The position numbers were made by a program. Positions 48,001-54,000 of a DNA stretch of 64,000 nt are shown here, piece by piece. Source of the stretch: Escherichia coli (GTDB taxonomy: Bacteria; Pseudomonadota; Gammaproteobacteria; Enterobacterales; Enterobacteriaceae). Each line of letters begins with the position of its first letter. Position 1 is the first letter of the stretch. Where the stretch lies: NCBI RefSeq assembly GCF_050320075.1, contig NZ_CP190019.1; one strand, written 5' to 3'.

Positions 48001-51000
48001 GGGTGTTTCGATAACATCAGCCATGACTGGCTGCTTTCCCATATTCCGATGGACAGGAGACTGCTTAAAAAATGGTTGAAAGCAGGTTACATGGAAAGAG
48101 GCGTGTTTAACCATACGAACAGCGGGACACCGCAGGGAGGCATCATATCCCCTGTTCTCGCCAACATGGCTCTGGACGGACTGGAGAAGGAACTGATGCA
48201 AACGTTCAGGAAAAGTGGTTATCACAGTGCAAAGCACCAGGTGAATTATGTGAGATATGCTGATGATTTCATCTGTTCAGGCAGCTCCCGTGAATTGCTG
48301 GAAAATGAGGTCAGACCACTGATTGCAGCTTTCATGCGCGAACGAGGGCTGGAACTGTCGGAAGAAAAAACCGCGATTACACATATAGATAAAGGCTTCG
48401 ACTTTTTAGGGCAGAACGTCAGGAAGTACAACGGTAAAATGCTGATTAAACCGTCGAAGAAAAACCTGAAGAACTTCCTCTGTAAAGTCAGAGAAATAAT
48501 TAAACGCAATCCGACGCTCCCGGCATGGAAACTGATAGGCCAGCTAAACCCGGTAATCCGGGGATGGGCTACCTATCACCGACACGTCGTGGCGAAAGAA
48601 ACATTTAATTATGTCGACACCCAAATCTGGCGAGCTATATGGCGATGGTGTGTAAGAAGGCACCCCCGAAAAGGATTGCGGTGGATCGCCGGACGATACT
48701 TCTCCTTTGAAGGCAGGCGCTGGATCTTTAAAGCCATAACCCCGGAAGGGAAAATTCTGACTCTCTTCCGGGCAATGGAAACACCGATAAAGCGCCATAT
48801 AAAAATCAAAGGCGAAGCAACACCATACACCCCCGGAATGGAAATCTACTTTGAACGTCGTCTGGATCTAATCTGGAAAGGCAAATCAAAGAAGATGAAG
48901 ACAGTAGTTCAACTCTGGAAGAGGCAGGGGAAACACTGTCCGCAGTGCGGACAACCCATAACCAACCAGACCGGATGGAATATACATCACCGGATCAGGA
49001 AAGTTATGGGCGGCAGTGACGAACTGACCAATCTCGAGTTGTTACATCCGAACTGCCACCGACAGTTACACAGCAGGGAAGCCGGTGCTCACCGAAAGCA
49101 CTTATAAAGGCTTGAGCGGAGTGCGGGGAAACTCGCACGCTCCGTTCTTAGGGGGCGGCGGCGCAGCAATGTGCCGCTGCTACCCGACCCGGCAGACAGA
49201 ACAACACTGCAGTAGTCAGAATCAGAGCAGTAGATAAAGGAACAACAACATCAGGAACAGTTCCATAACATAAGAAAGAAACACTCCTGAGTCAGACACA
49301 TCACAGACGGGAAGGGTAACGGGCGACGCGCCAGCGTGGCCCGCTTCCCTTCCGGCAGGCGTCAGCCTGCCAGGGGTTTTCGCGCGGGCTGACAGGCGGC
49401 CTCCACCGCCTGCCCCTGTATCACCTGTTTATGCTGCCCTGAAGGATGTAGTGACCGCCGAGGAATACAGCCTGCTGATTCGCCACAAAATCGCAGATTT
49501 CATCAACAATCTGCGCAGTGGTGAGCGGTTTCTGCCCCATTTCACGACGCCGCGCATTAATCACGGCTTTGTAATTGCGCAGAATTTCGCGGGTTTCTGT
49601 GCTGATATTCATGACATGTGCTCCCCGTCCAGCGCCTGTAACACAACGTCCATTGCTTCGCGTTCTTCCCTGACGAATGCGTCACCGTCGCCCCCGTTCT
49701 CGCTCCCGACGGCATACAGGCGCTTCATTTCACTGCCTGCCAGCGCCATCACTTTTTCCAGCATCACCGCCGGAACTGTCACCTGACGGCTGGCGCGCTT
49801 TTCTTCCATCAGCTCACGAACAACGTCGTGAACAATGCTGACATCCGCACCATGCGCAAAGGCATCGTCCAGTCGCTGCATGACGGTTTCCAGCTCATCG
49901 TCTGTCAGACTCCAGTCCTGGGCTATGTGACGCACATCCCCACGGGTCAGCACCACGGCAAAAACGCATTCACTGTCCGGCACGTCTGTGTTCAGCACTT
50001 CGCGGATAATTTCTTTAACAGTACAGTACATGTTCTCGTCTCCTTTACAGGGGCGGCATTGCCGCCCCGTCCGTTAATCAGTCCAGTGCCGCGTAAATCG
50101 CGTTGCATTCGGGGTGAAATTCGATGTGACGCCACAACTGCGCATCGCGCATCCGGTAAAGCTGGGTCAGTCCTGCATCCCCGCTGTCGTGGTACAGCCA
50201 CAACTGGCGGTTAATCACAAGGGAAGTCAGAATGATGCCTGCGGCATCAGCACTCACGGTACGGTCAAACCAGTTTGCACCGTTCACCATGTGGAAACGG
50301 TCGCCATCCGGCATCATGTAACCGCCACCGTCCGGCAGGCGGATGAAGTGCCAGAAGCCTCCCTGATATTCCGGCATCATTTTTTGCGCCAGCGCGTACA
50401 CATACGCCTCGGCATACAGAAAATCGTTGCCAAACAGATACGGTAGAAAGGAGAGACGGTCGCACTCTTCAACGTTCAGAGTGACAGGTTTCGCATATTG
50501 CATGATGTTTTCCTCCGTTGTTCACATATTCCGCGACACCGGGCGGTGCCGTGCCTCCATAAAAGCCGGGCGATAAGGCGGGGATGCACAGGGCGCAAGG
50601 GAAGCCGCAGCCTGACGCACACGGCTGGCGGGAGTTGGAGGGTGAGACCGCGAAATCTGAGCGGGTGAACGACCGGAAAATCACGGCAGACGGGAAGGAG
50701 GGACCGGGTGACCGCAGCGGCGAAGCGTACCCTTGCATCCCTGCCAGCCCGGCTACGATGGAGGCACGGCACAGCCCGCACACGACGCTGAGGCCACATA
50801 ACTGAAAACCCACAAGGCCATGCCCCGCATGGCCGGGTAAAGCGGAGCCGGCGGCGACTTCCTTTGTGCTCTGTCCGGGGACCGGCAGGAAAAAGGCGGG
50901 GATTTACCCCGCCAACGTCATCATTTCCGGATTTTTGCCAGGGCATCCGCCATGCTGCGGATTTCGGCCCGGGCTTCCCGGACCACCTCCCGCAGAACAC

Positions 51001-54000
51001 CACGGTCAAACCAGCGGCGGGGCGGTTCATCCGGTATACGCAGCACATCGCAGGCCAGCCCACTGGACAGGATATGCTCAATACAATCGCTGACCAGGTA
51101 CATTTCCACCGACGAAAAACGTGCTCCCCGGTTCACGATGGCATCGAGCACCACGGGCAGGTTTTCGTCATCTTCATCGAGCCAGCAGGGGTGATCGCTT
51201 TCCTTCACAACCAGACGAAAGCGGCGCGTCTGGCGAGTCAGCAACGTCTGACCGGTGGTGGTCAGCGCCGCCCGGATACGCCGCGCATCTTCTGCCACCC
51301 GGCAACTGACACTGCGTACCGCATCGCGCACCGCCGCAAGTACAGCCCTGATTTCGTCTTCGGTCAGCCATTCTCCGGCATACGGGAAAGACACCTGCGT
51401 TCCGTCTGCCGGAAGTACCGGCAGCGACTGCCACTGACTGCCGGACAGTACCAGTTCCGCCCCGGTTCCGGTCAGTTTCTGAATGGCGGAGGCCAGGAGC
51501 GGCGGCAGTACGCCGCCGTGACGGTTGATAAGTAACGTCGCCAGCCGGGGCGCATCCAGCAGAACATAAATGCTGATCCAGCCCGGATACTTCGGGTTAC
51601 GCTGGTCAACATCCGTCTCTTCCGGCCAGCCCTGCGCCAGCAGCAGGTTGCGGGCGTGACGACAAATCAGTGCGTTCAGCGTGCTGTTTTCGTTCATGAT
51701 TAAGCGTTCTCCCTGTATCGCCGCCCGCAGGGCAGGCGGCGATAACATCAGTCGTTTTCGTGTGTGTTGTTTTTCAGCAGGGTGCGGGCCTGATTAACCA
51801 CCTCCTGACGGCGGGTGACGCATTCCGGGACGGCGAGGCCATGATCCCGGGCGGCCCATTCACGTTTCCACAATGCCTGTTCAGCGGTCTGAATCAGGGA
51901 CGCCAGCAGTTCAGCAGGGACGGTCACCAGGCGGTTTTCGCTCTCGTTGCGGATAATCTCCATCACCGCAGCGGAAGAAATACCGGACTCAATCCGCTGG
52001 TCTTCCGGGATGTCCTCCAGGCGTGCCAGGACGGTCCTGATTTCATGACCGGTCAGAGAAATTTCCATACCGTCAGCCAGTGCCTGAATCTCTTCCGGGG
52101 ACCAGATAACCAGCATCAGCGGCATGTCTCCCGGATACTTTACTGCCAGCTCCCGGCATAGCGTTTCGCATGTTCCGTACATTCTCGTCTCCTTCTCAAT
52201 CTTTAAAGCACGCTTCCAGTTCCAGAATTTCGGTATATGCCTCCATCAGGAGGCGGTTTGCGCGAAACAGCGTCTGACGCACCAGACGTTCCGGCAGGGT
52301 GTCGGCATTAAAGCTGTACCGCTGCTCCATCTCATTCATGGTTGTACGCAGGTCGCACATGGCATTGGCCACCTCCGCCACTTCGGCGCGCAGTTTTTCG
52401 TGTCCTGCATAGTTCATTTACGCAGCCTCCGGCATAAACCAGTCATCATTCGCGGCCCCCTGCTGCATGGCCCGTTGCACGGCGGCAAGGCGTTGCTGCC
52501 CGGCACGGTGATACTGCTCAAGCAGCTCGATACCGATATACCGGCGTCCGGACTGGAGGGCGGCGACGCAGGTTGAGCCGCTGCCTGCAAACGGGTCCAG
52601 CACAATTGCGTTCGGGTGTGTGAAGCTCTCAATCAGCGGTTGCAGGCTGGTAACGGGCTTTTCCGTCGGGTGATGGCGATTGCCCGAATATTTCCAGCCC
52701 AGCACGTCCGGCAGCGGGTTTTGTGGCAGACGTGGACGGCCTTTTGCCAGGATGTAGGCACATTCGTGGCGATAGCCCACATATGCGGCCTTCGATGTGT
52801 AGTTTTTGGTGAAGACCAGGTGACCAACAACGCTGAATCCCGCATTTTTCCAGGCGGCCATAAAGCGATCGACGCGGTTCCAGCCATAGAAGCTCACCAT
52901 TAACGCGTCTTTTTTGAGTACGCGGTACATTTCATTACAGGCTGGTTGCAGCCATTCATCGGTTTTATCGCCGGCGATGGTGCGCCCGGAACGGTCACGG
53001 AAACCGACGAGATACGGCGGGTCGGTGAGGATGAAATCGACAGCATTGCCCGGAAACGTGGCCATAACACGCACGCAGTCACCCAGGATAAAACGGGACA
53101 TAACAGCACTCCTTCTCTTACAGAGGGCACCGGGAGGGCACCCCTGTGGTGCCCGTTCCCCGCTGCCTGTGGGCTGTTCACCGCGTCCGGTAACGGGTCA
53201 GGCCGACCGTGGAATACCGCAGCCGTCGTCTTTTTGACGGCGAGGATATGCCGCGAAAGCGGCTTGAAGGGCGTTCATCAGAAAAGGGCGACGGGCTGGC
53301 GTACACTGTCACCAACGCCAGCCGGGAGCGGTAAAAGCGTCCGTCCCGTGCCCGGCCGGACGCGGGACACTGACCACAGGCAGCGTTCCTGCCGCGCCGC
53401 GTCAGCCGGCGCAGTAAAAAGAGGAGCCCGGCGACATCTTTTGTTACCCGCCAAACAAAACCCAAAAACAACCCATACCCAACCCAATAAAACACCAAAA
53501 CAAGACAAATAATCATTGATTGATGGTTGAAATGGGGTAAACTTGACAAACAAACCCACTTAAAACCCAAAACATACCCAAACACACACCAAAAAAACAC
53601 CATAAGGAGTTTTATAAATGTTGGTATTCATTGATGACGGTTCAACAAACATCAAACTACAGTGGCAGGAAAGCGACGGAACAATTAAACAGCACATTAG
53701 CCCGAACAGCTTCAAACGCGAGTGGGCAGTCTCTTTTGGTGATAAAAAGGTCTTTAACTACACACTGAACGGCGAACAGTATTCATTTGATCCAATCAGC
53801 CCGGATGCTGTAGTCACAACCAATATCGCATGGCAATACAGCGACGTTAATGTCGTTGCAGTGCATCACGCCTTACTGACCAGTGGTCTGCCGGTAAGCG
53901 AAGTGGATATTGTTTGCACACTTCCTCTGACAGAGTATTACGACAGAAATAACCAACCCAATACGGAAAATATTGAGCGTAAGAAAGCAAACTTCCGGAA

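Follow-up and report, generated by a model that had tools for sequence, protein, structure and literature searches.

A displaced copy of the F/IncI leading-region establishment module, with putative single-strand promoter hairpins, in an Escherichia coli plasmid sequence

Seven genes from the F plasmid's leading region (NC_002483, 54.1-57.8 kb; yfdA...yffB / ssp2 / yfgB) recur in the same order in the IncI1 plasmid pESBL-EA11 of Escherichia coli O104:H4 (pESBL from here on), in the I-complex plasmid pMS7163B, and in the DNA considered in this work, a stretch of 64,000 nucleotides (nt) from E. coli (assembly GCF_050320075.1, contig NZ_CP190019.1) that is called the window and is always meant at its full length. 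There they form a block at 49421-53101, encoding an orphan adenine DNA methyltransferase (MTase), an ArdB/KlcA-type anti-restriction protein and five small proteins, and accompanied by two large hairpins. The module itself is already known, most of its mechanism having been published between 2020 and 2026, and the present copy is not new in kind; it is, rather, a natural example of the module uncoupled from the origin of transfer (oriT) by ~110 kb of acquired virulence and resistance DNA.

M.EcoGIX, the MTase of pESBL, places N6-methyladenine (m6A) promiscuously at SAY, and exclusively on single strands; it stays silent while its native strain grows normally in the laboratory, aids the establishment of pESBL against restriction in an orientation-dependent manner, and has abundant homologs in IncI1 and IncF plasmids (Fomenkov 2020, PMC7736820). 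Purification abolished its activity except when it had been fused to Pol I. RNA sequencing of pESBL with donor elimination showed six leading-region operons induced up to ~500-fold at 15 min, separate M.EcoGIX and klcA operons being among them, and early operons were reported for both F and pESBL (NAR 2025, PMC12672017). The same study mapped hairpin promoters in pESBL by 5' rapid amplification of cDNA ends (5' RACE) and assigned those of klcA and ardA to class 2 and that of M.EcoGIX to class 3, both classes being conserved in F and without sequence similarity to Frpo. In F, the hairpin ssp2, which lies upstream of the ArdB-homolog gene yfgB, holds up synthesis of the complementary strand until it is resolved by UvrD, and its deletion lowers transfer into EcoKI and EcoGIII recipients and into natural hosts; the delays reported for conversion of single to double strands are of 60-180 s (2026 preprint).

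As for the anti-restriction protein, ArdB of R64 inhibits type I restriction-modification (R-M) whatever the recognition site, without inhibition of BREX or type III systems, and F YfgB was reported to be 93% identical to it. In pMS7163B, loss of ArdB lowers transfer into an EcoKI+ recipient. For the mechanism of the ArdB family, a missing 'third player' was proposed.

Gene content and counterparts of the block

The block is very probably the oriT-distal part of an F/IncI-type leading-region establishment module, consisting of two operons that are read from single-stranded DNA (ssDNA) hairpin promoters and have no ordinary double-strand promoter. Its homology, gene order, covarying hairpins, strand bias, a terminator and the absence of sigma-70 promoters were established directly in this work. 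Throughout, the + strand of the window corresponds to the transferred (T) strand and is the template for all seven genes.

In DNA the block is 94% identical to F (over 4.15 kb, both intergenic hairpins included) and 95% to pESBL, across window positions 49295/49350-53442 (~4.1 kb) with the intergenic regions counted, and homology to both stops at 53442 (BLAST boundaries). Four of the F proteins are almost the same as those of the window (MTase 222/227, 98%; KlcA/YfgB 138/141, 98%; the 258-amino-acid protein p258 250/258, 97%; the 63-amino-acid protein p63 62/63, 98%), whereas YubE differs more (55/73, 75%). The same two-operon layout with its hairpins is found in pESBL (Fomenkov 2020, PMC7736820; NAR 2025, PMC12672017), where KlcA (141/141) and YubE (72/73) are closest and the MTase is identical at 209 of 227 positions. 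These likenesses bear out the initial annotation, which had described the block as a leading-region-like anti-restriction operon and was essentially right in this identification. Both plasmids differ from the window in their setting. In F the distance of the block from oriT is ~9-12 kb, and Frpo2, ssb and psiB come next, with the sopAB side as its right neighbour; in the window a group II intron, the remnant of a class-1 hairpin and IS26 come after it, and parMR of R1/R100 type lies to its right. pESBL has an IncI1 replicon and MOBP transfer, with ardA and psiAB nearby and the module ~13-16 kb from oriT.

The intact IncFII plasmid pCREC-591_2 has the order oriT, SLT, DUF932, hok, psiB, ssb..., p63, DUF1380, KlcA, p258, DUF1380, YubE, MTase, parMR, with all leading genes pointing toward oriT, and from this order and orientation the block is seen to be the oriT-distal end of a classical leading region. 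In this type of layout, which is the ancestral one for IncFII, the module is ~12-16 kb from oriT.

As first described, the seven open reading frames (ORFs) of the block are co-directional, all on the minus strand, and are listed at 227, 73, 144, 275, 141, 140 and 63 amino acids (aa), with parM (53618-54580) and parR (54580-54933) directly adjoining on the right. They are real genes and not chance ORFs, given the presence of the block in at least 5000 plasmid records and of diverged homologs for every protein. The 4-kb block matches at least 5000 PLSDB plasmids, the match spanning 80% or more of the block in at least 4997; their hosts are mostly Escherichia, Klebsiella and Salmonella, and 4083 of 5000 among the matches listed are conjugative.

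The MTase (52418-53101, minus strand, 227 aa) is a beta-class N6-adenine enzyme of the M.EcoGIX family (F YubD-type). It matches PF01555 (N6_N4_Mtase) over residues 21-201 (E 1.6e-40) and NCBIfam PRK13699 with 498.7 bits, and it has the beta-class order of motifs, with LTDPPY (motif IV) near the N-terminus and DPFAGSGST (motif I, SAM-binding) toward the C-terminus. It is 92% identical (209/227) to the pESBL methylase at the M.EcoGIX position, and the curated table of the study that subjected pMS7163B to transposon-directed insertion-site sequencing (TraDIS) names the ortholog there M.EcoGIX, having been curated against pESBL. No endonuclease was found beside it, profile searches showing no nuclease domain in the neighbouring YubE, DUF1380, p258 and parM products. 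By its sequence it is thus an orphan M.EcoGIX-type enzyme, whose predicted specificity, for SAY and for ssDNA only, is taken from M.EcoGIX. DpnA (M.DpnIIB) of Streptococcus pneumoniae is also a beta-class N6-adenine MTase, and the structure deposited as DpnA (PDB 5hek) matches the window protein with E 4e-12. DpnA differs in lying within the DpnII R-M cassette, in being GATC-specific and in serving transformation, whereas the type of MTase seen here is orphan, promiscuous (SAY) and serves conjugation; both presumably share the logic of methylating incoming single strands before their complement is made.

KlcA/ArdB (50078-50503, minus strand, 141 aa) belongs to PF03230 (E 1.5e-26), a family that it shares with ArdB of R64 and KlcA of RK2 (PDB 2kmg), the match to RK2 KlcA being a distant one (E 1.8e-18 to 2kmg, and 3e-7 to 2wj9). 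It is identical to KlcA of pESBL (141/141), and nearly so to YfgB of F (138/141) and to ArdB of pMS7163B (131/141, 93%). Its gene has the ribosome-binding site GGAGGA 6 nt 5' of the ATG. Inhibition of type I restriction, which was shown for R64 ArdB and is implied for that of pMS7163B, would by analogy be expected of the window protein as well. A scan of viral_contigs with KlcA gave no match. The genes around klcA in the window are probably not those found where klcA stands beside blaKPC platforms.

The initial annotation took the seven genes for one tightly packed operon. Most junctions are indeed short or overlapping, but a gap of 417 non-coding nt (50504-50920) lies between genes four and five, and two transcription units are indicated by the terminator-like hairpin after p258, this gap, and the separate ssDNA hairpin within it upstream of klcA; the literature also has two operons. 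The putative intrinsic terminator (50895-50913, minus strand) consists of GGCGGGGTAAATCCCCGCC followed by TTTTTCC, with seven G-C pairs, and sits 7 nt past the p258 stop codon. The gene before it had been given 275 aa, and this start was rejected: the longest ORF (50921-51748) is over-extended, its upstream ATG falling within an intercistronic hairpin, and all homologs down to 25% identity begin at an internal Met, which makes a protein of 258 aa read from 51697 (p258; YchA in one source).

Hairpins on the transferred strand

The 417-nt gap holds the class-2 (ssp2-type) hairpin, a putative single-strand promoter at 50540-50778 (+), recognized by inverted repeat, homology and covariation. Its arms are at 50540-50571 and 50747-50778, with inner arms at 50577-50588 and 50734-50745, and the + strand of the gap folds with z = -5.6. 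Its core agrees with F ssp2 at 240 of 245 positions (98%) and with the klcA copy of pESBL at 235 of 245; the region is also 94% identical to the stretch upstream of ardA in pESBL, fitting the published pairing of klcA and ardA in class 2. For an alignment, 17 copies were taken from the window, from F and pESBL, and from four metagenomic plasmids that were found via p258 homologs of 26-40% identity; RNAalifold gives 41 pairs for it, 23 of which show compensatory changes. In this alignment 95.1% of cells are paired, against 80.7% in shuffles (0 of 500 reach the observed value) and 28-41% in slid registers. On the 3' (non-template) arm, TTG (50733-50735) and TAnnnT are invariant in 17/17 copies, and the candidate -35 and -10 hexamers of the window are TTGCAT (50733-50738) and TACGAT (50754-50759), which match consensus at three and four of six positions, the middle three bases of the -10 being unpaired. 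The T strand of this hairpin is 11.3 kcal/mol more stable than its complement.

The class-3 (ssp3-type) hairpin, the putative single-strand promoter upstream of the MTase operon, was recognized in the same manner at 53161-53385 (+), with arms at 53161-53190 and 53356-53385. The + strand of 53102-53617 folds with z = -7.2, and the core is 97% identical to the F copy (ssp3) and 96% to the M.EcoGIX promoter of pESBL. Seven diverged copies give 80 pairs with RNAalifold, 25 of them compensatory, around the invariant inner motif TTGACGGCGAGGATATGCCGCGAAAGCGGCTTGAAG. Between this hairpin and the MTase ribosome-binding site, a small conserved hairpin in the 5' leader (53132-53161, assigned to neither strand; columns 8-37 of alignment A5) has 10 pairs, five with compensatory changes.

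Both large hairpins are among the most stable 250-nt folds of the 64-kb window, and in 11 of 11 copies of the two the T strand folds better than the complement, by 3.5-12.7 kcal/mol. On the other hand, no sigma-70-like promoter was found in 49100-53700, against 2.3 expected. The two share their principle with the Frpo/ssi class-1 promoters (Masai and Arai 1997), in which a long T-strand hairpin rebuilds the -35 and -10 with unpaired -10 bases and is active only as ssDNA. They differ from Frpo in length (~225-240 nt vs ~330 nt), in having no sequence similarity to it and, for class 2, in the additional roadblock property.

The class-2 hairpin is a widespread covarying element preceding several different leading-region genes, and has the look of a promoter cassette that is modular and portable.

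Among the leading-region genes of diverged metagenomic plasmids, p258 homologs, klcA and ardA included, almost all have a class-2-type hairpin to themselves, examples being those at 3938-4302 of locus L009, at 3403-3573, 4177-4347 and 5338-5506 of L011, and at 5750-5964 and 9747-9963 of L015. A shorter variant of ~157 nt was seen in F (L006, 7665-7821), in pESBL (L007, 3281-3437) and in L009 (2814-2968), directly upstream of DUF1281 genes in the latter two; it keeps the CCGTGC...GCACGG anchor, TTG and TAnnnT, and is absent from the window, where homology stops at 53442. With this variant, the single-strand promoters of pESBL, of which six were reported, may number seven.

Some RefSeq 'hypothetical proteins' coincide with these structures. 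ORFs of the WP_032146011.1 type (97-103 aa; 53178-53471, minus strand) lie wholly within the class-3 hairpin, and WP_000547971.1 (68 aa; 46262-46468, minus strand) lies within the class-1 hairpin described below; some records name such ORFs DUF1472. The 97-aa ORF was rejected as a gene, as it overlaps the class-3 hairpin, is Arg/Ser-rich and has no family match. Both it and the 68-aa ORF are probably spurious calls on structured non-coding DNA, the family search having been made with the 97-aa ORF only.

Proposed course of events and competing explanations

If the window copy works as the published ones do, the two large hairpins would form on the transferred + strand and mimic duplex promoters for the host RNA polymerase. 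The class-3 hairpin (53161-53385) would drive the genes of the MTase, YubE, DUF1380 and p258, in a unit stopping at the terminator (50895-50913), and the class-2 hairpin (50540-50778) those of ArdB/KlcA, the DUF1380 paralog and p63. Transcription of both operons would be confined to the time when the plasmid strand, in its new recipient, is still single-stranded, and during this time the MTase would put m6A on the entering single strand, blunting type II restriction, whilst ArdB/KlcA would block type I enzymes. As in F, the class-2 hairpin may stall complement synthesis until UvrD melts it, and thereby lengthen the single-stranded phase of expression; with the complement completed, the hairpins would vanish and the genes fall silent. 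In the present case, where ~110 kb of acquired DNA separates the module from oriT, it presumably fires minutes later than in F and protects less. In general, the module would help F-like and IncI resistance plasmids to survive restriction in new hosts, which bears on the spread of plasmids with extended-spectrum beta-lactamase (ESBL), rmtB and fosA3 genes.

Enzyme specificity, early induction, start sites and the roadblock are ascribed to this copy by analogy with published ones that are 92-100% identical in protein and 96-98% in promoter DNA; the m6A at SAY, the ~500-fold induction and the 5' RACE data come from pESBL and not from the window copy. This is the first of several points that weigh against the interpretation given above, as everything said here of expression, start sites, methylation and anti-restriction is carried over from F, pESBL, R64 and pMS7163B. 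Four of the seven proteins are without a demonstrated role. In the class-2 hairpin the 15-nt spacer on the non-template arm is short for sigma-70, and the asymmetry of the bulges (5 nt vs 1 nt) makes it 19 nt on the template arm. In the class-3 hairpin -35 and -10 hexamers were not identifiable in the seven aligned copies: the candidates picked by eye (TTGACG, TTGAAG, TAAAAG and the loop TAnAnT) were dropped, none having workable spacing and geometry. In addition, covariation in an inverted repeat cannot alone separate a single-strand hairpin from a protein-bound duplex palindrome, and only the G-T pairs and the asymmetry in strand stability favour the T strand. Finally, the window is not identical to the nearest complete plasmid, from which its distance to oriT is taken, and lacks several kb of that record.

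A possible, if doubtful, explanation is that the module is a stranded relic, carried along with parMR in an IS26-bounded IncFII fragment, intact only as the rearrangement is recent, and too far from oriT (~115 kb) for any useful early protection. The module does lie within a remnant of IncFII backbone that IS26 bounds, with a group II intron next to it: IS26 copies at 45216-46035 and from ~57216 onward flank the fragment, the gene of the neighbouring class-1 promoter was cut by IS26, and the intron landed beside the module. No oriT, relaxase or tra genes were found in the 64-kb window. The nearest complete plasmid, E. coli p14406-FII, is 100% identical over 98-100% of two window queries of 24-25 kb, and has oriT at the origin of the record, psiB and ssb at 4-5.5 kb, and the module at 115.3-119.0 kb on the same strand, IS26-flanked and inside an IS26-rich resistance mosaic. 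Since the window lacks several kb of that record, the distance of ~115 kb is approximate; it is, in any case, well outside the first ~10-30 kb after oriT by which a leading region is defined. The initial annotation had assumed expression early after entry from the position of the genes. Such expression is supported by the strong induction seen in the first minutes for F and pESBL, but the inference from position fails here, the module being ~115 kb from oriT, with neither oriT nor tra genes in the window.

The textbook rate of F transfer is ~45 kb/min. At this rate 115 kb would take ~2.5 min from the beginning of entry, a time comparable to conversion delays of 60-180 s, and this transit speaks for the relic. 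So does the work of Samuel et al., who placed an Frpo-driven anti-CRISPR in leading and lagging positions and found that leading localisation matters for efficient conjugation. Even so, many plasmids have copies of the seven ORFs and both hairpins with 100% identity, and the module has kept its orientation with respect to oriT (it shares its strand with psiB, ssb and the DUF932 gene in p14406-FII and pCREC-591_2), so that the hairpin promoters should still form, and fire, when the segment enters. Moreover, the arrangement of IS26, intron, module and parMR recurs at 99.4-99.6% identity in seven Klebsiella pneumoniae plasmids among the matches listed, and is thus at least not strongly counter-selected, and ArdB acts in trans and could still protect DNA not yet cleaved. 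An establishment module that still works, with a benefit that its displaced position would reduce, seems the better account, and the displaced copy could be used to gauge how much position along the transferred strand matters.

A single, constitutive operon of seven genes, read from a conventional double-strand promoter in the parM-proximal intergenic region, would agree with the co-directional genes and their mostly short or overlapping junctions, but is very improbable given that no sigma-70-like site was found where 2.3 were expected, that a terminator-like hairpin with its T-run and a structured gap of 417 nt follow gene four, that separate start sites were mapped for the M.EcoGIX and klcA promoters of pESBL, that M.EcoGIX is silent in laboratory growth, and that the klcA unit and the p258 gene, each with a hairpin of its own, are found apart from the MTase unit in diverged plasmids. 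It is just as hard to believe that the MTase works in vegetative cells, as an epigenetic regulator or the surviving half of an R-M system: orphan MTases such as Dam and CcrM are regulators, and CcrM is among its nearest solved relatives by sequence, but there is no adjacent endonuclease gene and no double-strand promoter was found, the gene is always in the T-strand-template orientation in leading regions, and the protein is 92% identical to an enzyme that acts on single strands only, is inactive in normal host growth and protects in an orientation-dependent manner.

Small proteins and neighbouring sequences

With the module itself known, the remaining biology is in the role of the small proteins. 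All five had been left unassigned by the initial annotation, which still holds for p258 and p63, whereas the 144-aa protein is a DUF1380 protein, the 140-aa protein its paralog, and the 73-aa protein a member of the YubE family. As had been proposed, the small proteins were searched against profiles (Pfam, PHROGs, NCBIfam); only DUF and unknown-function families were matched, and no clear unrelated function, of the kind that would speak against an anti-restriction block, emerged. Sequence searches of the PDB with the 73-aa protein, the 144-aa DUF1380 protein, p258 and p63 gave nothing below E 0.4, the 140-aa paralog being outside this search.

The YubE-family protein (52196-52417, minus strand, 73 aa) matches phrog_4830 (unknown function), and PF27407 (YubE) is precomputed on its 42-59% identical homologs and on fusion ORFs, the local Pfam copy giving no match for the 73-aa protein itself. 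Its start meets the MTase stop in TAAATG in the window and in TAATG in four metagenomic loci, in which YubE falls to 42-59% identity against 85-89% for the MTase, and the two genes are annotated without a gap in F, pESBL and pMS7163B. From these junctions translation of YubE appears to be coupled to that of the MTase in all the copies looked at (those of the window, F, pESBL, pMS7163B and the four metagenomic loci). That it might be a diverged DUF905, the family beside ssb, was considered and dropped, the sequences having no similarity.

The 144-aa protein (51748-52182, minus strand) is a clear DUF1380 member (PF07128, E 2.1e-49, 167.6 bits against a cut-off of 26; phrog_9024). Its ortholog pMS7163B_00940 is 88% identical, with a published dN/dS of ~0.17, and over-expression of 930/940 in cis was deleterious in the TraDIS study. 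Its AlphaFold model, from an alignment of 19 sequences, was unusable (pLDDT 51.8). The 140-aa protein (49609-50031, minus strand; YcjA in some annotations) reaches DUF1380 in Pfam with E 1e-3 and 19.5 bits only, below the gathering cut-off, and qualifies as a paralog only, by an end-to-end alignment with the 144-aa protein (BLASTP E 2e-7). It is a candidate anti-restriction accessory, being 96% identical (135/140) to pMS7163B_00910: in the TraDIS study both 910::Cm and ardB::Cm cut conjugation only from an hsdRMS-deleted donor into an EcoKI+ recipient. The published phenotype of '910' is thus that of the DUF1380 paralog, and on this account DUF1380 holds the most promise among the five small proteins.

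Each effector operon has its own DUF1380 paralog, and it is tempting to see the small conserved proteins not as passengers but as dedicated partners of the two known effectors (the paralog of ArdB, YubE of the MTase), which for now we hold to be rather unlikely. On this supposition YubE could be a factor that stabilises or targets M.EcoGIX, and the paralog could be the missing 'third player', since ArdB works in vivo but poorly in vitro and both mutants show the same EcoKI-dependent defect. The paralog is absent beside klcA in L009 and L014, and is therefore not obligatory.

p63 (49421-49612, minus strand) is a conserved 63-aa protein without a family match in Pfam, PHROGs and NCBIfam. Its start overlaps the stop of the DUF1380 paralog (ATGA), and in diverged plasmids its homologs (47-62% identity) follow klcA (L014), a 144-aa gene in the klcA operon (L015) or ardA (L011). 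Its ortholog in the TraDIS study (00900) had no effect on conjugation (log2FC +0.5).

p258 (50921-51697, minus strand), the last gene of the first operon, belongs to a real family of 178 representatives at E <= 1e-3. Its AlphaFold model is of good confidence (pLDDT 89.6) and shows a two-lobed alpha/beta fold, for which searches of solved structures (PDB) and of predicted viral ones (BFVD) found no structural relatives. Diverged plasmids have p258 without the MTase and immediately upstream of klcA or ardA, and its homolog in L009 has its own class-2-type hairpin (z = -6.4). GC-rich hairpins without T-runs lie on the minus strand before the ribosome-binding sites of p258 (51698-51747) and of the DUF1380 paralog (50032-50077), formed by ATCGCCGCC...GGCGGCGAT and GGGGCGGC...GCCGCCCC; they might serve in mRNA stabilisation or in the tuning of translation.

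On the right of the module, parM and parR (53618-54933, +) have StbA_N/ParM and Plasmid_stab_B domains, with parC-like A/C-rich repeats at ~53443-53617. On its left is the group II intron (46846-49188, +; Rfam RF02012 at 46890-47039 and RF00029 at 49112-49188), whose ORF (47440-49107) encodes a reverse transcriptase/maturase with RVT_N, RVT_1, GIIM and HNH domains. It was inserted 233 bp past the p63 stop, just after a small hairpin (46782-46827), and comparison with pCREC-591_2, which is without the intron, places the junction between GGTGCGC and CCGGCAG. The sense strand of the intron is the transferred strand, antisense to the flanking leading-region genes.

Beyond the intron is a class-1 (Frpo/ssi-type) giant hairpin (46282-46610, +), recognized by its fold (z = -11.1), the most stable 250-nt fold of the + strand in the whole window, and by homology to F: the stretch 46036-46708 matches the F sequence immediately upstream of a ygeA-type gene with 96.6% identity, and that upstream of F ssb with 87.7%. 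The gene downstream of it (a 72-aa ORF, 46019-46237) is truncated by IS26 (45216-46035) at 46035/46036. The plasmid pCREC-591_2 has three copies of this ~450-bp element, and that of the window looks chimeric (region 46036-46845), which suggests that recombination between class-1 copies may have deleted the ssb-psiB segment in an ancestor.

Some minor observations concern the rest of the window. Its first part has an ORF of 1273 aa (6790-10611, minus strand), and the matching region of p14406-FII is annotated with an 'anti-phage transmembrane ATPase', colicin M and oqxAB, the ATPase name not being tied to this ORF; a defence gene may thus share the plasmid with the anti-restriction module. Other very stable 250-nt folds of the + strand (-64 to -70 kcal/mol), unrelated to the module, lie at ~23201-23650 and ~33351-33650, one of them close to where oqxB ends and one in the region of mph(A).

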